From contig JABIFG010000141.1 in assembly GCA_018650795.1 (NCBI GenBank), forward strand, positions 12,902 through 76,901: DNA of 64,000 bases, in the 5' to 3' direction. Every line of letters starts with the position of its first letter. Position 1 is the stretch's first letter. A program made the translations under genes and the position numbers. A model generated the notes under the pieces. That model ran no database searches. It was not told the DNA's origin and saw only the letters and a list, made by a program, of their open reading frames with translations. This stretch comes from Fidelibacterota bacterium (GTDB lineage Bacteria; Fidelibacterota; UBA8477; JABMPR01). Positions 13,108 through 53,858 of this stretch are shown piece by piece.

Positions 13108-13713
13108 TCAATATTTAACCGAACACCCATATGGCTTGGAAATGCTATTGGTGATTGGCTGACCCGCCAGGGCTTGGTCCAGAGCTAAAGAAATAAAATT
13201 TTTGGCCCGGGGAATATCCTCCACTTTGGTAGAGCGAACATTGTCAGCCCCGCCTGCATATACCAGTTGACCCTGGGGATCAATGATAAATATATGCGGT
13301 GTTGTTCTGGCAGCATATGAGTGGCCAACCTGGCCATCGGAATCAATGAGATAGGCGGAGAAAGCAGCACCATGTGCCTTGGCCCTGCGCATGATTTCAT
13401 TGGGCTTAAAATTACCTTCCTTGCCAGGTGCTGAGGAATTGATAGATAACCAGACCACACCCTGTTCAGTATAGGTTGACTGGAGGGCTTGCATCTTACC
13501 GCTGTCATAATGCTTTTTCACGAAGGGGCAATCATAATTGACCCATTCAAGCACCACATAATTCCCGCGGTATTCCCTGAGATTATGTGATTTTCCCATG
13601 GCATCTTTCAGAGAAAAATCAGGAGCAGCTTCCCCAACGCTTAATTTCTGACCAAAACCAGTTGTGGCCAGCAATACAGCAATAATCATAATCGTGATAT
13701 GTTTTAAACGCAT
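13108..13713 (-). CDS. secreted thioredoxin-fold (redoxin/AhpC-TSA-like) protein
   Basis: Track ORF extends to 13866. The ATG at 13713 is preceded by AGGAG and gives signal peptide MRLKHITIMIIAVLLATTGFG. APDFSLKD..G....L.EYRGNYVVLEWVNYDCPFVKKHY indicates a thioredoxin fold with a single active-site Cys. Confidence 0.7.
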   Translation of the reverse strand: MRLKHITIMIIAVLLATTGFGQKLSVGEAAPDFSLKDAMGKSHNLREYRGNYVVLEWVNYDCPFVKKHYDSGKMQALQSTYTEQGVVWLSINSSAPGKEGNFKPNEIMRRAKAHGAAFSAYLIDSDGQVGHSYAARTTPHIFIIDPQGQLVYAGGADNVRSTKVEDIPRAKNFISLALDQALAGQPITNSISKPYGCSVKY

Positions 13714-13723
13714 GTGTATCTCC

Positions 13724-14521
13724 TTATTGAAAGGGTTGATTGACGATGGAGTGGGTGGTGATAGGACCACCAGGTGAAGCAAATGTTTGAACAAGTACGC
13801 CATGTAGAGATTCTGGAAGAACATCTGCATTATTGAGCAGTGGAATGATGATCCATTGCTTGCCAAAACCGCGCTTTACATGAACCGGCCTCGCTAAATC
13901 ATAAACCATTTCGTCATATGGAAAAAAGTCAACGGATAGAAGTTTCCGATCCCAGGGCAGGTGTCTAAAGGCCAGCTCAATCTGATTTTCCTTTTTAGAA
14001 ACTGTGCCCAATGAAATAGGGCCTGAATCAGGAAAACGTTTTTCAGCTTGCTTAAGCAGGGCAGTCCGCTCCTTTATAGCCTTCGATGGAGTGTTACTTG
14101 TGGGTATCATGAAACGGTGTTTAGAAGAACCCGGCTGACAAAGATCTTTACACTCCAGCCATTGAATATCCAGGGCAAAGACGTTGCTATCAGGTATTTC
14201 AGCGGGTGCTTGAATGCTAAACAGGTAAAGCGCTTCATTATCGAGGATAAATGTAGTAATGCCTTGATCAATGTGGCGAGTTGGTACGGGTTCACGACGA
14301 TTTATCACCTTGAAGTCCCTAGGAAGGGACCATTCAAAACTGGTGGGCATGCCAGCTTCTCCGGGATTTTGCCAATAGGTGTACCAACCAGGTTCCATGG
14401 AAAAGATCACTGCGACTTCAATAATCTCATTTGCCAGGACACCATGAGTCAGAGGGACGACTTCAACAGAAACCATGGCTTGTTCAGCAGCAATTAATTG
14501 GGATCCAACCAAGAGTAACAA
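13724..14521 (-). CDS. DsbD N-terminal (DsbD-alpha)-like periplasmic domain protein
   Basis: MEPGWYTYWQNPGEAGMPTSFEWSLP...IQWLECKDLCQPG matches the DsbD-alpha/ScsB-N pattern. The N-terminus is uncertain: TTG 14521 gives a poor signal peptide, while the in-frame upstream stretch IRKITIPRCLPVI has no canonical start. Confidence 0.6.
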   Translation of the reverse strand: MLLLVGSQLIAAEQAMVSVEVVPLTHGVLANEIIEVAVIFSMEPGWYTYWQNPGEAGMPTSFEWSLPRDFKVINRREPVPTRHIDQGITTFILDNEALYLFSIQAPAEIPDSNVFALDIQWLECKDLCQPGSSKHRFMIPTSNTPSKAIKERTALLKQAEKRFPDSGPISLGTVSKKENQIELAFRHLPWDRKLLSVDFFPYDEMVYDLARPVHVKRGFGKQWIIIPLLNNADVLPESLHGVLVQTFASPGGPITTHSIVNQPFQ

Positions 14522-22056: not shown

Positions 22057-22737
22057 CTAGGAGCTATGTGCCACGGCCGAGGGTGTTTGACAACCCACGA
22101 TGGCTGGTACTTCTTGAATCAAATCATCTTTTACCAGGGCATCCACCATAAATAAGGCAAAATCAATGCGACGGGTTTTGTTGCTCTCCAGGATAGGATC
22201 TCCAATATGCTGGCTCCAGACTGGCAGTCCCTGGCTTTCACCTTCTTCCAGATCGCTGCCACGCACTACAGTCCATTTGGTATCGCTCTCAAAAATACGC
22301 CGACAAGCTTCCACCTGATCATCCAACTCAACAGCACGGAAGAATCGTCCAATCTTTGCTGCAATACTCACTAGAACTTTAAAGGTGGTGGAGTAAACGT
22401 CTTTGCCATCCCGGGTGATATGCCAGCCACAGGAAAAAATGAGACGAGCGCTTGGTTGGGCATAATCCATGACAGCCTGGGCCGTCCCAGATGAATACTG
22501 CTGAACTCCCCAGGGTACCAAAACGGTCAGTACGCCATCGCAGCCGGTTACTGCCTGTTTAATGATTTCCCTGTCATTGGTGGCTCCAGGGATGATGGTC
22601 ATTTTATCCTTAAAAGCATCGAGTTTACTGACACTCTTTTCACGGCAGACACCCACCACCTCGTAACCGCGATCCAGGGCATGCTGAACCATATATCTTC
22701 CTAATTTCCCTGATGCTCCCACGATACAAATCTTCAT
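22057..22737 (-). CDS. NAD(P)H-binding (NmrA/atypical SDR-like) oxidoreductase
   Basis: The ATG at 22737 is preceded by GGAGA. It gives MKICIVGASGKLGRYMVQHALDRGYEVVGVCR, a Rossmann GxxGxxG motif. Confidence 0.7.
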   Translation of the reverse strand: MKICIVGASGKLGRYMVQHALDRGYEVVGVCREKSVSKLDAFKDKMTIIPGATNDREIIKQAVTGCDGVLTVLVPWGVQQYSSGTAQAVMDYAQPSARLIFSCGWHITRDGKDVYSTTFKVLVSIAAKIGRFFRAVELDDQVEACRRIFESDTKWTVVRGSDLEEGESQGLPVWSQHIGDPILESNKTRRIDFALFMVDALVKDDLIQEVPAIVGCQTPSAVAHSS

Positions 22738-22900
22738 ATATTCTCCAATAATTGAATAGTTGTCAATATTAACTAACGCTGGCAAACTAGAAGAAAAGGT
22801 TCGATCTAAAACAACAAAGATTGACCTTGTTGGTGTATATGGGATACTGTGATAAGCAGAATATCAAAAACCACGTTATAGGGGGAAGTGGCAATACTTG

Positions 22901-23575
22901 TTACATCGGTCCAGTGTTGTCAATTATTGGTTTTGATATATGCTGTAAATAGACATCAATGGCCTGCTTCAGCCGGGCTGGCTTGAATCCATATGGACCA
23001 ATCCCGGCCGCGTATTTAACCAGACCATCTAGTCCAATCAGATACAAGCGCGTGGGTTTGGCTGCATAGGCCTTACTAACGGAATCATCCATATTATCTA
23101 CATAGGTACGGATGTCATATTGTAAAGAGGCTTCGCATTGACCTGCCACAAGTCGACGTTCTTCAATTGTTTGGGGATCGTACACATCAAAAGCGGTCGC
23201 GGGGCTATACTTTTTGGTTAGTTTTCCCAATATCCCACCGCCCATCCACCAGCCATCCACGGGGTGTGCTTCACGTATATAAATGGGCAAGAATTGAACT
23301 TGTTCGCTATAGTTCTGGTACAGCTCGCGGAGACTCACGGTCCCCTTCACGTAGGGCGGTCATGTGAAACTACCAAAGACCAGCGCCACTGGTTTTTGTC
23401 CACGGAATTCAGACAGACGTACACGCTGTTTGCCACTCGCGTCAAACAGTTCAAAATCAGGGGCTTCGTCCCCTTCTTTTGGAGCCAAAGCATTATACTT
23501 CTTCTGCCAGACCGCCTCTTTATTTCGATACTGTAAAGTTTTAGTGATAAAATTCAAGATTAAAATTCCCCTCAT
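22901..23575 (-). CDS. iodothyronine-deiodinase-like thioredoxin-fold selenoprotein (in-frame UGA = Sec at codon 72)
   Basis: Track ORFs 23360-23575 and 22901-23350 are in the same frame, separated only by TGA (23362-23360) and three sense codons. The joined product reads ...KPVALVFGSFT-U-PPYVKGTVSLRELYQNYSEQVQFLPIYIREAHPVDGWW...YAAKPTRLYLIGLDGLVKYAAGIGPYGF. This matches the deiodinase signatures GS.T-U-P.F, IYI.EAH..DGW and YAA.P.RLY.I. Confidence 0.8.
23329..23345 (-). promoter_or_regulatory. putative bacterial SECIS apical hairpin
   Basis: The mRNA reads UGA-N14-GGGGAC CGUGA GUCUCC. That is a 6-bp stem (one G-U pair) with a 5-nt loop containing GU, sitting 24-25 nt after the U of UGA. The spacing is close to the E. 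coli fdhF SECIS as I recall it. Confidence 0.55.
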
Positions 23576-23625: not shown

Positions 23626-24027
23626 TTACGCCACTTTCACAACAGCTTCACCATCAATAACTATTTTACCTTTGCTGTTCACGCAAAATGTTCGCAAGGT
23701 CACAATCGGTTTGTCCTCACGGATTTTTATAACCTGAACCGTTGCAGTGACCTCTTCATCAATAAACACCGGATGGGTAAAATTGAGTGATTGGCCTAAA
23801 TAGATACCGCCTTTACCAGCCAAATCATTACCCAGCAGGCCGGAAAAAAGACTGGCGACCAGCATGCCATGCACAATTCTTTGCCCAAAAACAGTCTCTT
23901 TTGCAAAAGACGAGTCTAGATGAAGGGGGTTTTTATCCAAGGATAGGTCTGAGAACTCATGGACGTCACTATCTGTGAAGATTTTTTTCACTGATCTTTT
24001 GTCGCCAACCTTCAATTTGATCATCAT
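23626..24027 (-). CDS. MaoC-like (R)-specific enoyl-CoA hydratase / hot-dog fold dehydratase
   Basis: FSDLSLDKNPLHLDSSFAKETVFGQRIVHGMLVASLFSGLLGN...PG is the MaoC dehydratase signature. 133 aa. Confidence 0.85.
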   Translation of the reverse strand: MMIKLKVGDKRSVKKIFTDSDVHEFSDLSLDKNPLHLDSSFAKETVFGQRIVHGMLVASLFSGLLGNDLAGKGGIYLGQSLNFTHPVFIDEEVTATVQVIKIREDKPIVTLRTFCVNSKGKIVIDGEAVVKVA

Positions 24028-24134
24028 TATGATCCTTTCAGAAATATTACTAGGTGTCGGGCCGTAGCTCTGGAAGAGCGAAGATGGGCTTTAAACTTTT
24101 AGCAAGGCCACCTGAAATCTTGTCTTGCCATTTT

Positions 24135-25025
24135 TCAATTATATCCAGCTGAGAATTCTAGCAATCTAACATTCAGTGTTTCCTGGACTACTTGCCCGTA
24201 GTGGTCAAGTGATAAATACAAGACACCCACATTGTTTTTAATCCATATCTCACCATCATAAACCTGAAAAATGATAGATGAAGTTAAAGCTGTGGTTCCA
24301 GAGAATGCATCAGAACTGGAATTGTATAATTGATTTGTGAATGGAGTTTGAAGTTCAAGGTTTGTCATGCCATGGTTTAAGCTCTCATGGAAATACTTAT
24401 TAAGAACTATTGAAAAACTTGTATCTGCAAAAGGAACTGATAAAAATGAGGCTACAGCATAGTTTTCATCTATAGGTTCCTCCAGATATTGAAGGTCGTT
24501 TATTTCAATAGTGTCGCTAAGACCGTAGGATTTCTTAAAACCGGCGATAGTTATTTCTGAGCCAATAGAACCAGGGGAAGAATCGATAATAATACGGTGA
24601 ATTATTAGATCTATAAAACTATCATAAGGAGGTTCATCCCAGCGAGTATACTTATACTCATATGTCCAATGGGAGCCAACAGTAGATGGGTAGTAGTCTA
24701 TCTTGACAAGCGATAAGTCGACAATAGTATCAGCGGTACTATTAAAAAGAAAGCTAGTGTCCATATGCATCAAAGAAAACAGAGAAAATAAATAATCATC
24801 GTTTCCGCCCAGACTGATCTCATAGTTCCCTAGGCTGTCTGAATAGGCAACACCTGAATCCTGTGAGGAATGATATTTGATTGCAACTCCTTGAATTGCC
24901 ACGGAAGACCCCATAATATGCCCACTCAAATTAATCTTTGGGCTTTCATTGATTGGCCGAGTCGTTTCTGTACTACATGAAATTTGTAGTATCAACAGAG
25001 ACGCAATTGACAATTCCCTTATCAT
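24135..25025 (-). CDS. hypothetical lipoprotein (cassette-borne)
   Basis: 296 aa with a lipobox-type signal (LLILQISCS). Low GC and no recognisable catalytic motif. Starts just downstream of an attC-like repeat. Confidence 0.45.
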   Translation of the reverse strand: MIRELSIASLLILQISCSTETTRPINESPKINLSGHIMGSSVAIQGVAIKYHSSQDSGVAYSDSLGNYEISLGGNDDYLFSLFSLMHMDTSFLFNSTADTIVDLSLVKIDYYPSTVGSHWTYEYKYTRWDEPPYDSFIDLIIHRIIIDSSPGSIGSEITIAGFKKSYGLSDTIEINDLQYLEEPIDENYAVASFLSVPFADTSFSIVLNKYFHESLNHGMTNLELQTPFTNQLYNSSSDAFSGTTALTSSIIFQVYDGEIWIKNNVGVLYLSLDHYGQVVQETLNVRLLEFSAGYN

Positions 25026-25061
25026 TTATTTTCCAGATTCTCGTATATCACTCTATCAGTT

Positions 25062-25190
25062 GGCCTAACGTTTCAGCCATAACCTGCTTCTCAACAGATT
25101 GTAGTATTGTAAAAACACGGTATCCCTGTAGTTCATTTTTATTAACCGAGCCCTTTGTGTGAGTAAGGTTGAAGCCGTTGATAGAAAGCC
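25062..25190 (-). repeat. attC-like repeat copy 2 (degenerate palindrome)
   Basis: Begins directly after the stop of 25191-26675. Its first 35 nt on the minus strand (GGGCTTTCTATCAACGGCTTCAACCTTACTCACAC) match copy 1 at 28 of 35 positions without gaps. Further shared blocks are ACAGGG.ACCG, AATCTGTT, GAAGCAG and CGTTAG. It ends in GTTAGGC, which fits the GTTRRRY consensus. Confidence 0.6.
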
Positions 25191-26675
25191 CTACTTCAGA
25201 AAGATTATAGTCCTATTCTCATGCCAAGACAACGCTGATACTCTTAAGAAATAAAGTCCTGAGCTTAATTCAAACCCATTATTTGTAGTACCATTCCAAA
25301 ACTGATTGTAACGTCCTGCTTCCTGTTCGCTAAATTTGCGACTCCATATTTTTGTACCTGACAAATCATAAATATCTAAGACCACTGATGAACGAACGGG
25401 TAAAGTATATCCAATATTACAGGTACTATTCGTTGGATTTGGCGAAATGGTAATTTGCCGAAAGAATGAATCAGATTTTTCCGTTGGGATTAGTGCCGAC
25501 GTGGATGTTTGACCCATCGAGTCCGTCTTAATTATCCAAAAATCCGCATTTGAATCTCGACCCACTACAAGAAATCCATTGTCATAAGTTTGAATCACAG
25601 CCTTCATCTCATTGTAACCATGACTACCATAGGTTCTAGTCCACATAACCTCACCATCAGAATCTGTTTTTACCATCCAGCCAAGATCATCATTATTAGC
25701 CAGCCCCGCATTTTGTTTTTGACCAACCATTAGAAACCCACCATCATTTGTTTGAACCAATGAGCTTGTAATCTCATTATGGTAATCTCCATATGTATGA
25801 GACCATACTATTTCACCGTTAGAATCAATTTTAAATAACCAAAAATCTCCCTGGGTGGATTCAAATGAGGCTGTGAAACCGGTAATTACGAAACACTGAT
25901 CGTCAGTCCGCACTAGGTCATAAGCCGCATGAAACCCCGCACCACCATATGTTTCAGTCCAAAGTGTGTCACCATTTGCATCTGTTTTTAATATCCAACA
26001 ATCCCCGTCGTCACTTGTCCCCACTACTAAGTATTCTTGATCATGGGTTTCTAAAACTGAATGTGTTGCATCATTCAAACCCATATTATATCCGCGTGTC
26101 CATAAAGTATCACCGTTGATATCGGTCTTGATTAACAATAAGTCTTTCTCTGGCTCATCAAATGATAAAACTTTTCCGCATATCAAATATCCTTCGTCGG
26201 TCGTTTCAATAACTGAAGAGCCAATACTAATTGCAAATTCCCCAACACCAAAAGTTCTCGTCCAAAGGGTATCTCCAGCTTGATCAATTTTAACTAACCA
26301 AATGCCCCCTTCCTCACTCATAATTGTCCCCGAAAAAACATAATCATGGGTAAGAGTTTCAATTATCGAGTAAGCTTCCTCAATAATTGCGTCTTCTCCA
26401 TATGTTTTTGACAAGATTGTATCACCAGAAAGATTTGCCTTGATCAGCCAGATATCAGAAGCCTCTGGTGAACCATAACCAAAAGACTCTGTTGTACCAA
26501 TTACAGTATATGTTGAATCCGCCGTTTGAACCACGGACATTGCTCGATCAAACCAGGCTCCGCCATACGACTTAATCCAAGTGTTTTGACCATAAGACAC
26601 CGATATCACCAATAGTGTGGTGATATTTATCGATAGTCGTAATATATTTGATCTCATATTTCCTGCCCCACCCAT
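25191..26675 (-). CDS. secreted beta-propeller-like repeat protein with T9SS type-A C-terminal sorting domain (cassette-borne)
   Basis: At least six ~48-aa repeats, each ending in a GDT-type motif (GDTILSKTYG, GDTLWTRTFG, GDTLWTRGYN, GDTLWTETYG, GEIVWSHTYG, GEVMWTRTYG). The C-terminus is ISPNPTNSTCNIGYTLPVRSSVVLDIYDLSGTKI...GRYNQFWNG...SGLYFLRVS....IIFLK. Confidence 0.7.
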   Translation of the reverse strand: MGGAGNMRSNILRLSINITTLLVISVSYGQNTWIKSYGGAWFDRAMSVVQTADSTYTVIGTTESFGYGSPEASDIWLIKANLSGDTILSKTYGEDAIIEEAYSIIETLTHDYVFSGTIMSEEGGIWLVKIDQAGDTLWTRTFGVGEFAISIGSSVIETTDEGYLICGKVLSFDEPEKDLLLIKTDINGDTLWTRGYNMGLNDATHSVLETHDQEYLVVGTSDDGDCWILKTDANGDTLWTETYGGAGFHAAYDLVRTDDQCFVITGFTASFESTQGDFWLFKIDSNGEIVWSHTYGDYHNEITSSLVQTNDGGFLMVGQKQNAGLANNDDLGWMVKTDSDGEVMWTRTYGSHGYNEMKAVIQTYDNGFLVVGRDSNADFWIIKTDSMGQTSTSALIPTEKSDSFFRQITISPNPTNSTCNIGYTLPVRSSVVLDIYDLSGTKIWSRKFSEQEAGRYNQFWNGTTNNGFELSSGLYFLRVSALSWHENRTIIFLK

Positions 26676-26693
26676 TTTTAGATAGAATTAGTG

Positions 26694-26829
26694 CTTTCTA
26701 ACGCTCTAGGCTTGAGCTGCTTCATGAGAAGTGTTCAAAACAGATTCGGTACCCTGTATGCGTGATATCAATTTCAGTTTCCCCCGAAATGAGTGTGAGT
26801 CAGCTCTAAGCCTTTGTTAGAAACCCCTG
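26694..26829 (-). repeat. attC-like repeat copy 1 (well-folding)
   Basis: Three segments pair: TTTCTAAC (26695-702) with GTTAGAAA (26816-823), AGGCTT (26708-713) with AAGCCT (26808-813), and GAGCTG (26714-719) with CAGCTC (26801-806). They are interrupted by an internal loop (GCTCT vs TT) and one bulged base (26807). This is an R-box / unpaired spacer / L-box with an extrahelical base, around an ~80-nt variable centre. Confidence 0.65.
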
Positions 26830-26864
26830 AATATAGCAATAATTACTATTACTCAGAATGTTTA

Positions 26865-27134
26865 TCAATGTGAATCGTAATGTCCACCAATGGCAAAGAT
26901 GTAAATGGATTTGTCATCATATTTATAAATTACTCTATCCCCTTTAGACAATCTCCGTGACCAAAACCCTTTAAGGTTGTGTCTGAGTTGTTCAGGCTTG
27001 CCTAATCCGTGTGATGGATCGCCTCTTTGCATTTCTTGGATAATCTTACACAGATTCGTGTGTAGTTTTTTGTCCTTCTTTCGAAGTTCTTCATATTTTG
27101 ACCAGCTTTTACCTTCAAATACTATTGATCTCAT
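26865..27134 (-). CDS. yoeB: YoeB/Txe family toxin (ribosome-dependent mRNA interferase)
   Basis: ...GLGKPEQLRHNLKGFWSRRLSKGDRVIYKYDDKSIYIFAIGGHY closely parallels E. coli YoeB (GKGKPEPLKHNLSGFWSRRI...HRLVY...HY). Confidence 0.9.
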   Translation of the reverse strand: MRSIVFEGKSWSKYEELRKKDKKLHTNLCKIIQEMQRGDPSHGLGKPEQLRHNLKGFWSRRLSKGDRVIYKYDDKSIYIFAIGGHYDSH

Positions 27135-27387
27135 CTAATTCCTCAGAAGTTGGGGAATATCCTGATCCCGTAGTATGAGTTTCAATGGATTCGATAATTT
27201 GTGCCGAAAGAGATGAGTTCTGAAGCACAAATAGGGTTTCTTGCTCCCTCTCCCAATCCTCAGCACTTTGTACAACAAAATCTTTACCGGCACGTCTTTT
27301 AACACGAATGCTAGAGTGCTCAGAAAGCGCTTGATCCACAAAGGCTTTTATATTTGCCCTAAACTGGTTTACTGAGACTTCAATCAT
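27115..27387 (-). CDS. yefM: YefM/Phd family antitoxin
   Basis: 90 aa with a Phd/YefM-type N-terminus (SVNQFRANIKAFVDQAL..SSIRVKRRAGKDFVVQSAEDWEREQETLFVLQNS). Overlaps yoeB by 20 nt. Confidence 0.85.
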   Translation of the reverse strand: MIEVSVNQFRANIKAFVDQALSEHSSIRVKRRAGKDFVVQSAEDWEREQETLFVLQNSSLSAQIIESIETHTTGSGYSPTSEELDEINSI

Positions 27388-27415
27388 TATAAGCTCCTTT
27401 CATATTTCGCCCATA

Positions 27416-27436
27416 ATGTACCATATTGCGGTACAT
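27416..27436. promoter_or_regulatory. putative YefM-YoeB operator palindrome
   Basis: ATGTACC-N7-GGTACAT lies 29-49 nt upstream of the yefM start. The E. coli yefM-yoeB operator is built on TGTACA-type palindromes. Confidence 0.5.
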
Positions 27437-27909
27437 ATCACAAGATAACATTTAACAATCACAAACTATCCTTGGGGTGTTTCTAACAGTGTTTATACGG
27501 TCTCGTATAAGACGAACCAAACGCCCAAACGCCCGTATAATTTTTTTTATTGTTTGCGTAAGTTTCTGTTATTCAACAGTCTATCCTTAGTCCGTTTTTA
27601 TCGCGGAATTTTATCATGACCGCATAAATAGCTCGCCTCAGCTCCACAAGCGCCGAGTGTATTTTGTTATGGCCTGTAAATGCTGTGTTTTGCACAAGAA
27701 CCCCCGTCCCTGGTTTATATCATACGCGAATCTAGACCTTCTGTCTATTTAATCAAGAGCTCAGTTCTTCAGGCTTCTTGAAGGCGACTGAAAGTCAAAG
27801 CGGAAGTCCCAAAATATGAGAGATATGCTCTAGATTATTGAGTCTTACCTGAATACCTTAGATGCTGTAAAAAAAATAATCTTGTGTTTGGAAAGGGTAA
27901 AAGTCATCC

Positions 27910-28980
27910 ATGGCCAGTAAAGGCATGAAAATAGCCGAAGCACTCAAACATCTCGGTCTTGAAAAAACTGCTGACGCTAATGATGTCAAGCTAGCCTATC
28001 GTGATCTGGCCAAAATCTGGCACCCCGACCGCTTTCAAAACGATGAACGAGTTGGTGCCAAAGCAGAAGCCCAGATCAAAATCATCAATGAAGCCAAAAC
28101 GGTGGCCCTCAACTATGTTGAGAAATATGGTCATTTCCGACACGTCAAGGATGATAATGCGGGTGCCGGTATGGGCTTTGAGCCCCCCAGGCCACCCCCC
28201 AGATACCAACAGCAACAAGCCAGACCACGCCCTAGACCACAGCCAGAACCGGAACCACCACCGCGAAAAGAACCCCCCAAGCCGCCCCCAAAAAAGGAAC
28301 GGCCCAAACCACCACCACGGTCCAAGCCGGAACCTGATGTCTTTGAAGAATCCATGTCCTTTAGTGATTATTTGCCTGGCTCAACCTCTCTTTTTGTAGC
28401 CACTATCCTGATTATCCTGATAGGCTTCTTTTTTATGCTGGGTTCTTCACTCTTCAACTCACCAGTGGATCGTTTTAAAGAGTATGCCGAAAGACCAACT
28501 CTCCAGAGTGCTGCCAGAGTTAAAGCCATGCAACAGCGCGAGGCTGAGGCAACCCGGACAAAAGCCGCTGTAAAAAAAGAAGAGCCTGTAGCTGAAGTGG
28601 TCATTTTAGATACTTTTTTTACACTGGGCTCTGACAAAGACTGGGTTTCTGAGGTTCAAGGTCCGCCCCTGCAGATCAAAGGGCTGGAGTGGCGCTATGG
28701 TTTCTCCACAGTTCAGTTCGATGGTGACAAAGTGGTTTCCTGGATATCTTCAGAATTAAATCCACTGAAGGTTGGAATGATTCTGGATCCCAATCGCTTC
28801 TATTCCGATCGTTATTTCAGCACAGGCTCCAAAAAGGATGAGGTGGCTGCCATCCAGGGCGCTCCGGATATTATTGAACCCAACAGGTGGACCTATGGTG
28901 ATGCCTGGGTAGAATTTGATTCAGATACGGTAGTGACTTGGCAGAACGATCAATCCATTCGTCTTGCTATCCGCTATTAA
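27910..28980 (+). CDS. J-domain (DnaJ-like) membrane protein with Pro-rich linker and duplicated C-terminal domain
   Basis: J-domain with an HPD motif (AYRDLAKIWHPDRFQNDE). The linker is RPRPRPQPEPEPPPRKEPPKPPPKKERPKPPPRSKPEP. One TM helix (LFVATILIILIGFFFMLGSSLF). Two related ~50-aa C-terminal repeats (FTLGSDKDWVSEVQGPP..WRYG...VQFDGDKVVSW and FSTGSKKDEVAAIQGAP..WTYGDAWVEFDSDTVVTW). Confidence 0.75.
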   Translation: MASKGMKIAEALKHLGLEKTADANDVKLAYRDLAKIWHPDRFQNDERVGAKAEAQIKIINEAKTVALNYVEKYGHFRHVKDDNAGAGMGFEPPRPPPRYQQQQARPRPRPQPEPEPPPRKEPPKPPPKKERPKPPPRSKPEPDVFEESMSFSDYLPGSTSLFVATILIILIGFFFMLGSSLFNSPVDRFKEYAERPTLQSAARVKAMQQREAEATRTKAAVKKEEPVAEVVILDTFFTLGSDKDWVSEVQGPPLQIKGLEWRYGFSTVQFDGDKVVSWISSELNPLKVGMILDPNRFYSDRYFSTGSKKDEVAAIQGAPDIIEPNRWTYGDAWVEFDSDTVVTWQNDQSIRLAIRY

Positions 28981-43312: not shown

Positions 43313-43513
43313 TTGTACGTAATGTTTATCCTGATGGCTTTTAGTCTGACGGTATCTTTGATTTTTTTGGGTGCCTATGTCTGGTCGGTCAAGTCCGGAC
43401 AGTTTGATGACAAATATACCCCATCAGTGAGAATGTTATTCGAAGATAAAAAAGTATCAAAGAAAACGGAACCCGGTACTATTTCGGGAGATAAAAACGA
43501 GGAGAATAAATAA
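43313..43513 (+). CDS. ccoS: cbb3-type cytochrome oxidase maturation protein CcoS/FixS
   Basis: 66 aa with a single TM followed by WSVKSGQFDD, the CcoS signature. Confidence 0.85.
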   Translation: MYVMFILMAFSLTVSLIFLGAYVWSVKSGQFDDKYTPSVRMLFEDKKVSKKTEPGTISGDKNEENK

Positions 43514-45630
43514 TGGAGATGGAAAAATTTCAGTACGACAATAAAATCGTGCGAATGTTTTTCTGGGCCACCGTTATATGGGGTGTCACAGCCTTTCTGG
43601 TTGGACTTACTATAGCGCTTCAACTGCCATCACCCTGGTGGAATTTTAGCACATCATGGCTAACTTTTGGTCGCCTGCGTCCCCTGCATACCAACGCAGC
43701 TATTTTTGCGTTTGTCGGCAATGGCATATTCATGGGATATTACTATTCAGCTCAAAGATTGCTTAAAGCCCGAAATTTTTCCGATGTGCTCAGTAAAGTG
43801 CATTTCTGGGGGTGGCAGGGTATCATTGTCTCAGCAGTGTTGACTCTGCCTGCCGGTTTATCCACCGCCAAGGAATATGCAGAGCTGGAATGGCCCATTG
43901 ATATCGCCATCGCCCTGATCTGGGTTGCCTGGGGTGTCAACATGATGGGGACCATCCTTAAACGCCGCGAAAAGCACCTCTATGTAGCGATCTGGTTTTA
44001 TATCGCCACCTTTGTCACGGTTGCCATGCTCCATATTGTGAATTCTCTGGAGATGCCAGTGAGTTTCATGAAGAGTTATCCAATTTATGCCGGTGTACAG
44101 GATGCTCTGGTTCAATGGTGGTACGGTCACAATGCTGTCGCCTTCTTCCTGACCACACCTTATCTGGGTTTGATGTACTACTTCATGCCAAAAGCCGCCC
44201 AGAGACCGGTCTACTCCTATAGACTGTCTATCATTCACTTCTGGGCTCTCATCTTTCTGTATATCTGGGCTGGTCCTCACCATTTGCTCTATTCCTCAAC
44301 ACCCGATTGGGCACAAACACTGGGAACTGTATTCTCTATCATGCTGATTGCTCCTTCATGGGGTGGTATGCTCAATGGTTTGCTCACACTACGAGGTGCC
44401 TGGGACCGAGTTCGTCAGGATCCCATCCTGAAATTTATGGTTGTGGCCATTTCCGCTTATGGAATGTCCACCTTTGAAGGTCCCATGATGTCATTGAAAA
44501 ACTATAATGCCATCACGCACTTTACAGATTATACGATTGCCCATGTCCACGTTGGCACTTTGGGATGGAACGGTCTGTTAACTTTTGGTATGCTGTATTG
44601 GCTGGCACCACGCCTATGGAATGCAAAGCTTTATTCAGTTAAACTGGCCAATGTTCACTTCTGGTTAGCTACGCTTGGAATCATTTTCTATGTCATTCCC
44701 ATGTACTGGACTGGTATTACCCAGGCCTTAATCTGGAAACAGTTCACACCTGAGGGCTTGCTCGTCTATCCAAACTTTCTGGAAACCGTATTACAGCTGG
44801 TCCCCATGTACTGGACACGAGCCTTTGGTGGAACGCTTTATCTGACGGGTTCCTTGATTATGGTTTATAACCTGGTCAAAACTGCCCGCTCTGGTGCTCC
44901 AATTCCTGATCAGGAAATGGAAGCTGCTCCCTTGAAGCCCATCGTGGCCGAACCAGGTGAACACAAACACCGCTGGCTTGAAGCCCGACCCATGTACTTC
45001 CTGGCCTTGGCTTTGGTTGCCGTGGCTATTGGTGGTATTGTAGAATTTGTGCCCATGTTTGTTGTGAAGTCCAATATTCCAACCATCAGCACGGTCACAC
45101 CTTATTCACCCCTGGAGCTTGAGGGTAGAGATATTTACATCAAGGAAGGTTGTTCTAACTGCCACTCACAGATGATTCGTCCATTCAGAAGCGAAACCGA
45201 ACGCTATGGTGAGTACTCGAAAGCCGGTGAGTTTGTTTATGATCATCCATTCCTGTGGGGTTCCAAACGAACGGGACCAGATCTCCATCGTGAAGGTGTT
45301 GGCAAGTTGAAAAAACCGGATGCCTGGCATTATAATCACATGGACAATCCTCGCTCAATGAGTCCTGGTTCTATTATGCCGGTCTATCCCTGGTTGCTGG
45401 AGAGATCCAATGATTATGATGATCTTCCCAAGAAAATCAGTGTCATGAGAACCTTAGGTGTTCCATATGCAGAAGGATACGAAGATCAGGCCCTGGAAGA
45501 CCTTAAGCAACAGGCTGACGGAATTGTGGCCAATCTTAAGGAATCAGGCATTGAAACGTCCTGGGATAAAGAGATTATCGCTCTTATCGCATATCTGCAG
45601 AAGCTTGGAACAGGAATTCTTCCCAAATAG
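43513..45630 (+). CDS. ccoNO: cbb3-type cytochrome c oxidase, fused subunits I and II (CcoN-CcoO)
   Basis: 705 aa. The N-terminal ~470 aa is a polytopic heme-copper oxidase (HTNAAIF, WWYGHNAVAFF, HHLLY, HVHVGTLGW). The C-terminal part has a TM helix and a heme-c site CSNCHSQMIRP, which is CcoO-like. Confidence 0.95.
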   Translation: MEMEKFQYDNKIVRMFFWATVIWGVTAFLVGLTIALQLPSPWWNFSTSWLTFGRLRPLHTNAAIFAFVGNGIFMGYYYSAQRLLKARNFSDVLSKVHFWGWQGIIVSAVLTLPAGLSTAKEYAELEWPIDIAIALIWVAWGVNMMGTILKRREKHLYVAIWFYIATFVTVAMLHIVNSLEMPVSFMKSYPIYAGVQDALVQWWYGHNAVAFFLTTPYLGLMYYFMPKAAQRPVYSYRLSIIHFWALIFLYIWAGPHHLLYSSTPDWAQTLGTVFSIMLIAPSWGGMLNGLLTLRGAWDRVRQDPILKFMVVAISAYGMSTFEGPMMSLKNYNAITHFTDYTIAHVHVGTLGWNGLLTFGMLYWLAPRLWNAKLYSVKLANVHFWLATLGIIFYVIPMYWTGITQALIWKQFTPEGLLVYPNFLETVLQLVPMYWTRAFGGTLYLTGSLIMVYNLVKTARSGAPIPDQEMEAAPLKPIVAEPGEHKHRWLEARPMYFLALALVAVAIGGIVEFVPMFVVKSNIPTISTVTPYSPLELEGRDIYIKEGCSNCHSQMIRPFRSETERYGEYSKAGEFVYDHPFLWGSKRTGPDLHREGVGKLKKPDAWHYNHMDNPRSMSPGSIMPVYPWLLERSNDYDDLPKKISVMRTLGVPYAEGYEDQALEDLKQQADGIVANLKESGIETSWDKEIIALIAYLQKLGTGILPK

Positions 45631-52506: not shown

Positions 52507-53451
52507 ATGAAAAACATGATATTTGGAACTGGACCACTGGCCTGGTGGGTTATGCAGACCTTGTTGGAGAGGGGTGATACAGTTGCTCTAGCCAGCCGCA
52601 GTGGAAAAATCAATAAGCCCTTACCCGAGAATATTGAAATTCATGCCTGTGATGCAACTCAGCCTGATGAGGTGGCCAAAGCCTGTCAGGAGATGGATGC
52701 AGTCTATTTTTGTGCCATGCCGCCCTATAACAAGTGGCCCGACCTTTTTCCACCCCTGGTAGTTGGCTTTTTAAAAGGTGTTGCCAGAACCAAGGCTAAA
52801 TTGATTTTTGGTGACAATCTCTACTTATATGGATCTACTGAGGGTACACGTATCAACGAAACAGTAGCCCATGATGCTTCAGGCCATAAGGGTCGTACCC
52901 GTGAGTTTGTGGCACGTCAATTTATGATGGCCCATGAGCGGGGAGACAATTTGGTAACCATTGGTCGCGCCTCAGATTTTTATGGTCCCCAGACGACTAA
53001 TGCTGTTTTTGGTGAGATGTTTTTCAAACCCGCCCTGACAGGTAAAACAGCCAATCTTTTGGGGGATTTAGAATTGCCCCATACCTTTAGCTATATCAAA
53101 GATTTTGCCAGAGGCTTGGTAACCCTGGGCAATAATGAATCTGCTTTTGGTGAGGCCTGGCACACACCCAATGCCCCGACAATTTCTACCGCGGAAATGC
53201 TCGGTCTGATTGAGGCGGAGCTGGGTGGTAAAGTTAAGGTACGTGCCGCTGGAAAAACCATGATCTCCATGCTGGGATTATTCAATCCCATGATAAGAGA
53301 AGTTAAGGAGATGATGTACACCTGGGAAGAGCCCTACATAGTGGACCACTCTAAATTTGAAGCTGCTTTTGGAGTTGAAATCACCAGCCATGAAGAGGCC
53401 CTTAAAGAAACTATTGCCTGGTTTAAAAGTTATCGAGAGATCAAAGAGTGA
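52507..53451 (+). CDS. NAD-dependent epimerase/dehydratase family (extended SDR-like) protein
   Basis: 314 aa with an N-terminal IFGTGPLAWWVMQTLLERG dinucleotide-binding fold. Confidence 0.6.
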   Translation: MKNMIFGTGPLAWWVMQTLLERGDTVALASRSGKINKPLPENIEIHACDATQPDEVAKACQEMDAVYFCAMPPYNKWPDLFPPLVVGFLKGVARTKAKLIFGDNLYLYGSTEGTRINETVAHDASGHKGRTREFVARQFMMAHERGDNLVTIGRASDFYGPQTTNAVFGEMFFKPALTGKTANLLGDLELPHTFSYIKDFARGLVTLGNNESAFGEAWHTPNAPTISTAEMLGLIEAELGGKVKVRAAGKTMISMLGLFNPMIREVKEMMYTWEEPYIVDHSKFEAAFGVEITSHEEALKETIAWFKSYREIKE

Positions 53452-53858
53452 AAAAGCTGAGCCAGGATCAGATCCTGAATTTTCTCCTATATGCTGGAGC
53501 TGTTTATTTTCTGCTGGTTGCCATCGTTCATTTTCTGGGAATTAAAATACCTGGTTTTTTCGTTTATTATAATGTGCCATCCCACGCCTATCAGGATAGG
53601 ATTATTTCCTTTCTAACCTTTGGTTGGTCGGGTCTTTTCTTTCTAACAGCCAGGAAAATGGACTCAGATCTCATCAAGCTTATTCTGGTTATTGGGCTTA
53701 TTGCTGTCATAGCACTTGTAGTGAACACAATAATCACTGACTTTCAACAACTGGACCAGTCCCTTAGTGGTGCTGATTATAAATGGATTATCGGTGGGCT
53801 GATGTTCTACTGGTTGGGTCTTGTGGTTCATTCCAGACAGCACTTTTTAAATAAGTAA
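53448..53858 (+). CDS. membrane protein, unknown function
   Basis: 136 aa with four hydrophobic helices. 4-nt overlap with the upstream gene. Confidence 0.4.
   Translation: MKKLSQDQILNFLLYAGAVYFLLVAIVHFLGIKIPGFFVYYNVPSHAYQDRIISFLTFGWSGLFFLTARKMDSDLIKLILVIGLIAVIALVVNTIITDFQQLDQSLSGADYKWIIGGLMFYWLGLVVHSRQHFLNK

Follow-up and report, generated by a model that had tools for sequence, protein, structure and literature searches.

Deiodinase-like selenoproteins of bacteria were first described in 2005, when Zhang, Fomenko and Gladyshev found four selenocysteine (Sec)-containing and six Cys-containing deiodinase-like sequences with bacterial selenocysteine insertion sequence (SECIS) elements in Sargasso Sea data (PMC1088965). 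The Global Ocean Sampling (GOS) survey of 2008 reported 22 Sec-containing deiodinase-like sequences (PMC2398784), and reviews of 2022 and 2026 list the deiodinase-like family with the motif UxxC (PMC9312934, PMC13188914). Here we analyze a gene of this kind, split by an in-frame TGA, in a 64,000-nt stretch of DNA (the window; contig JABIFG010000141.1, positions 12,902 to 76,901) from a bacterium of the Marinimicrobia (SAR406). An earlier note on this DNA had stated that such bacterial proteins come mainly from marine metagenomes and that their substrate is unknown, which agrees with the first two surveys (PMC1088965, PMC2398784). In the literature we found no explicit report of a deiodinase-like selenoprotein from this phylum. 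On the comparisons given below, we consider it very probable that the locus is one functional gene, encoding a soluble, single-domain, thioredoxin-fold enzyme of the deiodinase family whose catalytic residue is Sec. The gene and its parts are the following.

22901..23575, minus strand: deiodinase-like gene, probably encoding a selenoprotein; 224 codons plus stop, ATG at 23575
23363..23575, minus strand: N-terminal part, with the N-terminal helix, beta strands and the G-S-F-T lead-in to the active site
23360..23362, minus strand: in-frame UGA, putative Sec codon, residue 72, in the motif G-S-F-T-U-P-P-Y
22901..23359, minus strand: C-terminal part, bearing R101-E102-A103-H104-P105, C147 and R176
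23329..23345, minus strand: SECIS-type hairpin GGGGAC-CGUGA-GUCUCC, with 5' arm 23345-23340, loop 23339-23335 and 3' arm 23334-23329
23275-23261, minus strand: R101-E102-A103-H104-P105
23137-23135, minus strand: C147, the sole Cys of the protein
23050-23048, minus strand: R176

The frame from 23575 to 22901 has a single interruption, the TGA at 23362-23360, and the list of open reading frames (ORFs) splits the gene there into pieces of 71 aa (23575-23360) and 149 aa (23350-22901), the second beginning at a GTG and lying in the same frame. The earlier note had joined these pieces into one gene through the junction LVFGSFT-UGA-PPYVKG, and this holds: the coordinates were right, the frame runs for 224 codons, and the sequence across the junction is PVALVFGSFT-TGA-PPYVKGTVSL. 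Some gene callers use an alternative TTG start at 23557, with GAGGGG ahead of it, and obtain a 65-aa N-terminal piece. Public annotation accordingly carries the N-terminal part as a separate hypothetical ORF of 65 or 71 aa and the C-terminal part, with 145 or 149 aa, under the name "T4_deiodinase" or as a hypothetical protein.

Both sides of the TGA behave as coding sequence. In pairwise comparisons with ten other species, the proportion of nonsynonymous differences (pN) was 0.15-0.23 upstream of the TGA against a proportion of synonymous differences (pS) of 0.71-1.05, and downstream the values were 0.08-0.17 and 0.39-0.79. The codon table also shows conserved amino acids (0.95-1.0 at many N-terminal columns) and near-random third bases on both sides, and by these measures both halves of the gene are evidently under purifying selection. 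Three assemblies, each from a different sample (ENA ERZ27245991, JGI 3300004277 and JGI 3300003496), carry the gene, including the TGA, without a single base difference, and this identity served as a stand-in for read support of the TGA. Because TGA is the stop of 15 of the 50 other ORFs in the window, the standard genetic code applies here. Thus, conserved codons, pN lower than pS, identical assemblies and the normal use of TGA as a stop elsewhere lead us to regard the gene as an intact one that is translated across its TGA. When the window was scanned for single TGAs that might be read through, no other credible selenoprotein candidate emerged.

The joined product belongs to the deiodinase family. 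In searches run with Cys placed at the TGA position, it aligned across the junction to Pfam T4_deiodinase (PF00837) with 92.8 bits against a gathering score of 27 (E 2.7e-26), residues 21-206 lying on profile positions 60-233 of 237. The top solved-structure matches by sequence were the mouse Dio3 catalytic core (4TR3, E 2.8e-19) and Dio2 (9H48, E 9.5e-14), and in both the TGA column is the catalytic Sec, which is Cys in the crystallized mutants: G-S-F-T-TGA-P-P-Y aligns to G-S-C-T-C(U)-P-P-F of Dio3 (FGSCTCPPF) and to G-S-A-T-C(U)-P-P-F of Dio2. The family blocks that the earlier note had pointed out in the downstream piece, with the last written as G.GPYGF, are present, and IYIREAHPVDGWW, YAAKPTRLYLI and GIGPYGF align to IYIEEAHPSDGW, YGAYFERLYVI and GRGPDGY of mouse Dio3. 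The AlphaFold model (predicted local distance difference test score 78.7, predicted template modeling score 0.78, with low confidence in the insertion at residues 105-129) shows a predicted thioredoxin fold with a deiodinase-type insertion. Its closest folds in the PDB are 4TR3 and 9H48 (template modeling score 0.76), which rank above ResA-type thiol-disulfide oxidoreductases and peroxiredoxins.

Two other assignments were considered and rejected. The Redoxin and AhpC-TSA profiles gave marginal and partial matches only; AhpC-TSA (PF00578), the peroxiredoxin profile, reached 29 bits against a cutoff of 26 but covered only profile positions 2-63 of 124, the peroxiredoxin motif P-x-x-x-T-x-x-C is absent, with T directly preceding U, and peroxiredoxins fell below deiodinases in the fold search. 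Full-length membership in the NCBIfam family NF038285 "deiodinase_rel" was also rejected, with 181.3 bits against a cutoff of 250 over positions 176-344 of 347; by this alignment, the gene product is best described as a shorter, single-domain relative of that family.

The TGA itself is conserved over a wide range of bacteria. A search of 5.8 billion clustered proteins returned 1369 relatives, and a scan of GTDB, taking one genome per species, showed that at least 403 species-level genomes encode a relative of the gene, mostly Anaerolineae. The best 80 of these 403 genomes, which were detailed further, are mainly Anaerolineales and other Chloroflexota, and also include Desulfobacterales, Zixibacteria, Deferrisomatales and Neomarinimicrobiota. 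TGA stands at the Sec column in all of the related loci read as DNA (83/83), which come from many phyla. The nearest relatives in the protein collection are mostly fragments of 130-150 aa that start just past the TGA, and in a metagenome-assembled genome (MAG) of the Desulfobacterales the gene is likewise split around the TGA, into pieces of 65 and 135 aa. The bare presence of a stop codon, and nothing more, would suggest a pseudogene or a sequencing or assembly error, that is, a nonsense mutation or a miscalled TGC or TGT. This explanation is effectively refuted by the TGA in the same column of every locus, by the identical sequence in three assemblies from three samples and by pN well below pS on both sides, as the earlier note had expected when it called a pseudogene unlikely.

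At greater distance the column is occupied by Cys. An exhaustive HMMER search of 1.84 billion representatives gave 4053 related clusters, and the top matches that span the column, which are more distant and full-length (n=131), have Cys exactly there in 121 cases, "W" and Ser in four cases each, and Leu and Ala in one case each; the four "W" are TGA again. The comparison with Cys-containing bacterial homologues that the earlier note had proposed as a check therefore came out in its favor. On these alignments the pattern is the classical Sec/Cys pairing, and the clade around our gene is, as far as its sequences tell, exclusively of the Sec type; its motif is T-U-P-P-Y/F-V, its C147 does not vary, and its SECIS is nearly invariant in several phyla.

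Some database relatives are "full-length" and show Trp at the Sec column (FGSFTWPP; P0002-P0011, P0130, P0168, P0202 and P0228). Such entries could be taken to mean that UGA is read as Trp, Cys or Gly, through an altered code or a near-cognate tRNA, and the failure to see Sec machinery in the region examined (see below) points the same way. However, the Trp forms arose where genes on short contigs were called with TGA taken as Trp; the underlying DNA of L001 (205-867) has TGA. The hosts belong to standard-code phyla, TGA terminates other ORFs of the window as described above with no other credible in-frame TGA among them, and the position is the Sec of deiodinases and the Cys of the homologues. 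A hairpin at a fixed distance and under synonymous constraint, as described in the following, also suits SelB-dependent decoding. Altered decoding is thus very unlikely, and the insertion of Sec is the reading we retain.

Several side observations concern the distribution of the Sec form. A number of Chloroflexota MAGs carry two TGA-containing copies on separate contigs, which are Sec paralogues (L014 and L034, L025 and L046, L021 and L050). One locus, L055, lies on a contig labeled "Methanosarcinales archaeon" (JAIWHF010000042.1, coverage 0.28), and its TGA/SECIS stretch differs from that of L057, from Anaerolineales, at 3 of 84 nt; this is probably a contig from a bacterium that was placed in the wrong bin, and not a case of a bacterial SECIS in an archaeal selenoprotein. 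The protein of the window is 78% identical to that of L008 (unclassified bacterium), 67-70% identical to the Chloroflexota and Desulfobacterales versions and 60% identical to the other Neomarinimicrobiota copy, L068, whose hairpin loop is also different (UGGAA). The pattern of identities and the loop of L068 suggest horizontal transfer or old paralogy.

The second line of evidence for Sec insertion is the hairpin downstream of the UGA. The hairpin GGGGAC-CGUGA-GUCUCC, which the earlier note had proposed, is present at 23345-23329. The distance of fifteen nucleotides after the UGA given for it is correct for the inner 5 bp (23344-23330), which form the cross-species core inside the codons G78-T79-V80-S81-L82, and not for the 6-bp stem, which begins 14 nt after the UGA; the G and U of the loop, placed by that note at +24/25, are counted here as +25/+26, with the U of UGA as +1. 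Published bacterial SECIS elements are marked by a small G-containing apical loop directly 3' of the UGA (PMC1088965). A scan of the window against Rfam at gathering thresholds gave no match.

For the comparison between species, we used a gapless alignment of 80 distinct sequences. The block GGGACCGTGAGTCTC, which encodes Gly-Thr-Val-Ser-Leu, is nearly invariant and always lies 15 nt past the TGA, and unguided RNAalifold returned a 5-bp stem with a 5-nt loop as the sole consensus structure. The stem cells are paired in 91.9% of cases, compared with 27-59% after a shift of the 3' arm by 1-3 columns, and the covariation score was reached by 0 of 500 column shuffles. Pair 30-40 is GC in 71 sequences and UA in 7, pair 31-39 is AU in 75 and GC in 2, and the U-A change (GGU...AUC, 7 sequences) combines a synonymous change of Gly with a change from Leu to Ile on the opposite arm. 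A hairpin of at least 5 bp folds in 80/80 sequences with a median free energy of -7.45 kcal/mol, whereas most other windows of the stretch lie at about -0.5 to -2 kcal/mol, the exceptions being overlapping windows and an upstream hairpin of the PP codons with GGG (-4.45 kcal/mol). The second loop base, G, is invariant, and the third, U, is found in at least 90% of the sequences.

The third bases of the hairpin codons are also constrained. Fourfold third-base entropy in the hairpin is 0.60 bits at Gly+6, 0.73 at Thr+7, 0.85 at Val+8 and 0.29 at Leu+10, compared with 1.5-2.0 bits elsewhere in the stretch, where the exceptions are Leu-7 (0.98) and Thr-1 (0.83) before the UGA; Ser+9 is always AGY and never TCN. 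Judged from the alignment, this constraint on synonymous sites is the strongest signal for the hairpin that is independent of coding. The immediate surroundings of the UGA (window 23357-23365) show something similar: the codon before it is ACC in 66 of the 80 sequences (third-base entropy 0.83 bits), the Ser at -3 is almost always AGY, and C invariably follows the UGA. Because of this ACC bias, the AGY Ser and the fixed C, the surroundings of the UGA seem constrained beyond coding needs.

The block GGGACCGTGAGTCTC could instead be a ribosome-binding site with a start codon, in which case the locus would encode two separate small proteins, a 71-aa peptide ending at the TGA and a 145-aa product starting from the GTG within the block. 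Gene callers annotate the split in every assembly, AAGGGGA resembles a Shine-Dalgarno sequence, and the GTG is kept in most sequences. However, GGA or GGG replaces GTG in L027, L055, L057 and L068, the spacing between GGGGA and GTG is just about 3 nt and hence too short, and the change from GGG to GGT is matched by one from CTC to ATC on the other arm, which fits base pairing and not a ribosome-binding site. Two proteins would also cut the thioredoxin fold exactly at the catalytic residue, with loss of the nucleophile, and the homologues with Cys at this column are single polypeptides. We therefore judge the two-protein explanation to be more improbable still than altered decoding, and return to a single selenoprotein with a SECIS-type hairpin.

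Some observations nevertheless weigh against this selenoprotein reading. The hairpin is short, and in the single sequence shuffled controls are at least as stable: for the 76 nt that follow the UGA, the minimum free energy is -14 kcal/mol and the mean of the shuffles -16.5 (z +0.92), so thermodynamics provides no evidence and the case has to be made entirely from comparative data. Folding the region after the UGA, a check that the earlier note had suggested, was accordingly unremarkable for the single sequence and informative only across species, where the hairpin is conserved, covarying and constrained at synonymous sites. The seven U-A sequences may belong to one clade and hence represent one or a few evolutionary events, and the conservation of the hairpin partly coincides with that of the amino acids G-T-V-S-L. 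On the protein side, the Dio3 residues H219 and C239 have no aligned equivalents here (H219 falls on D-P and C239 on Ile). The genes flanking the locus, MaoC-like and NmrA-like, adjoin no homologues in other lineages. Finally, no tRNA-Sec was found in the 64-kb window with ARAGORN, the window proteins that were scanned show no SelA, SelB or SelD domain, and no sel genes lie in about 10 kb past either end of the window; the statement in the earlier note that the window holds neither sel genes nor tRNA-Sec is thus borne out.

The same negative result was obtained beyond the window, as ARAGORN found no tRNA-Sec in any of the fetched loci and tblastn, with an approximate E. coli SelD query, found no SelD match in the fetched DNA. 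The one piece of support from elsewhere is that SelD is listed for three SAR406 single-cell genomes as "orphan SelD" (PMC5029168), and our literature search on Sec in Marinimicrobia found nothing beyond this listing.

The residues retained in the protein permit a proposal for its mechanism. Invariant positions in the Sec subfamily are S69-x-T71-U72-P-P, R101-E102-A103-H104-P105, G108-W109, R140, C147, D160, Y170 and P174-x-R176. Among the Cys-type homologues (n=121), E102 is retained in 120, H104 in 120, R176 in 119 and C147 in 85, and D160 and P174 likewise fall within the range of 119-121 out of 121. E102, H104 and R176 align with E200, H202 and R275 of Dio3, which in the structural model of that enzyme form the proton relay and the substrate clamp. 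In place of an equivalent of Dio3 C239, a different Cys, C147, is conserved.

We propose that SelB, directed by the downstream hairpin, would bring Sec to UGA codon 72 instead of termination; gene callers, which stop at the UGA and restart at the GTG in the hairpin loop, would then produce the two annotated ORFs. If the Dio3 structural model applies, the selenolate in S-x-T-U-P-P-Y, near E102, H104 and R176, would attack the substrate at an electrophilic atom; C147, the putative resolving residue, would convert the selenenyl intermediate to a selenenylsulfide, and a thioredoxin- or glutaredoxin-type reductant would recycle the latter. For the atom attacked in this model, our preferred but tentative candidate is the halogen of a natural phenolic that carries iodine or bromine, removed by reductive dehalogenation; it is attractive because the clade has Sec exclusively and keeps the Dio-type His/Arg clamp. 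A generic thiol-dependent redox role on peroxides or disulfides, as suggested by Zhang et al., is at least as likely, and we would give it somewhat less than an even chance. The broader idea that the whole clade represents a widespread Se-dependent reductive dehalogenase, free of corrinoid and flavin and acting on natural iodinated or brominated aromatics, is in our view a rather unlikely extrapolation from the sequences. If it were true, the clade would constitute an unrecognized route of organohalogen and iodine cycling in oxygen-poor marine waters and sediments, and its activity would be ancestral to the thyroid-hormone deiodinases of animals.

The neighborhood of the gene gives no further indication of its role. 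It is flanked on the same strand by a gene for a MaoC-like hydratase upstream and one for an NmrA-like NAD(P)-binding protein downstream (22057-22785), and a terminator-like hairpin about 70 nt past the stop codon stands ahead of the latter.

22812..22832, minus strand: terminator-like hairpin followed by a U run, weakly indicated by the consensus scan alone

De novo clustering of the neighbors of about 80 loci revealed no conserved operon, with no family present in more than 12 loci. Since the neighbors are not conserved, the context says nothing about function. The other proteins of the window include some with type IX secretion sorting domains, a fused cbb3 oxidase subunit I/II, TonB-dependent receptors and products of housekeeping genes. 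The fusion is a single 705-aa ORF (43513-45630) that joins the cbb3 oxidase subunits I and II (CcoN-CcoO; NF011053, 1233 bits), and the proteins that cluster with it at 90% identity or more bear the names Candidatus Marinimicrobia or Neomarinimicrobiota, which identifies the lineage of the host. More than 100 contigs sample this population, and the right-hand end of the window is also contained in the NCBI MAG GCA_018662545.1.

We also noted some features of the window that are separate from the deiodinase-like gene. The region 24001-28000 has a G+C content of 0.39, compared with about 0.45 elsewhere, together with a negative GC skew; it encodes a protein of 296 aa that matches nothing in Pfam, another of 494 aa that ends in a type IX secretion sorting tail and, at about 26865-27387, the toxin-antitoxin pair YoeB/YefM. 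The region may represent a small island that was acquired and lies directly upstream of the MaoC-like and deiodinase-like genes. At 13108-14521 (minus strand), a Redoxin/AhpC-TSA gene adjoins a gene for a DsbD N-terminal domain, the two ORFs overlapping by about 140 nt; this pair is a second thiol-redox module in the window, and it has no in-frame TGA. The only tRNA of the window, tRNA-Ile (anticodon GAU, 53769-53845), overlaps the 3' end of a 136-aa ORF (53448-53858), and this ORF, which is also a public gene call (L088 4327-4737), may be spurious or mis-ended.

One practical consequence concerns annotation. Wherever it was found, the gene is mis-annotated, either as split ORFs, one hypothetical of 65-71 aa and one "T4_deiodinase" fragment of 135-150 aa, or as a full-length protein with a spurious catalytic Trp. 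Hundreds of public MAGs therefore under-report a selenoprotein and hence a selenium requirement.

Compared with the described systems, the locus is closest to the bacterial "deiodinase-like protein" family. It shares with that family the Pfam00837 domain, the bacterial host and marine origin, the UGA at the catalytic position, the existence of Cys homologues, the downstream stem-loop with a small G-containing loop, and a function that is likewise unassigned. Unlike the UxxC motif given in the reviews, our protein and its clade have U-P-P-Y/F with no nearby Cys, and the conserved Cys lies 75 residues downstream. The family NF038285 has a homologous C-terminal deiodinase domain in its 347 positions, and its N-terminal domain of about 175 residues is absent here.

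The likeness to the vertebrate enzymes Dio1-3 (4TR3 for Dio3, 9H48 for Dio2) comprises the thioredoxin fold with the Dio-type insertion, the active site G-S-x-T-U-P-P-F/Y, the E-A-H-P-x-D-G-W block and the R-L-Y block. However, identity is only about 29%, no hydrophobic N-terminal membrane anchor is evident in our protein, and its insertion after DGW is about 13 residues longer. Besides H219 and C239, Dio3 C168 has no aligned equivalent, and the SECIS is a bacterial in-frame hairpin instead of the eukaryotic element in the 3' untranslated region. It is not anticipated that thyroid hormones serve as substrates of this protein.

The hairpin can also be set against the SECIS of E. coli fdhF, the archetypal hairpin bound by SelB. 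Both lie within the coding sequence just 3' of the UGA and present G-U in the apical loop at a fixed distance, and the size of ours is comparable to the 17-nt minimal SelB-binding stem-loop. The loop bases of fdhF are G23/U24, compared with G25/U26 here; our hairpin has no bulged U, its loop is CGUGA (5 nt) instead of GGUC, and there is no conserved lower stem that includes the UGA.

Thus, the family, its bacterial SECIS and the open question of its substrate have been known since 2005, and the locus is no new kind of system. The earlier surveys held 4 and 22 Sec sequences, whereas the clade described here extends to at least 403 species-level genomes, mostly Anaerolineae, and to Marinimicrobia. 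To the known family our analysis adds this breadth, an apparently exclusive Sec clade, a mini-SECIS that is nearly invariant across phyla and the recognition that mis-annotation is systematic. It also places a probable deiodinase-family selenoenzyme in SAR406, an abundant lineage of oxygen-minimum zones, and the Sec-only clade offers a clean candidate set for asking what the bacterial homologues of deiodinases do.

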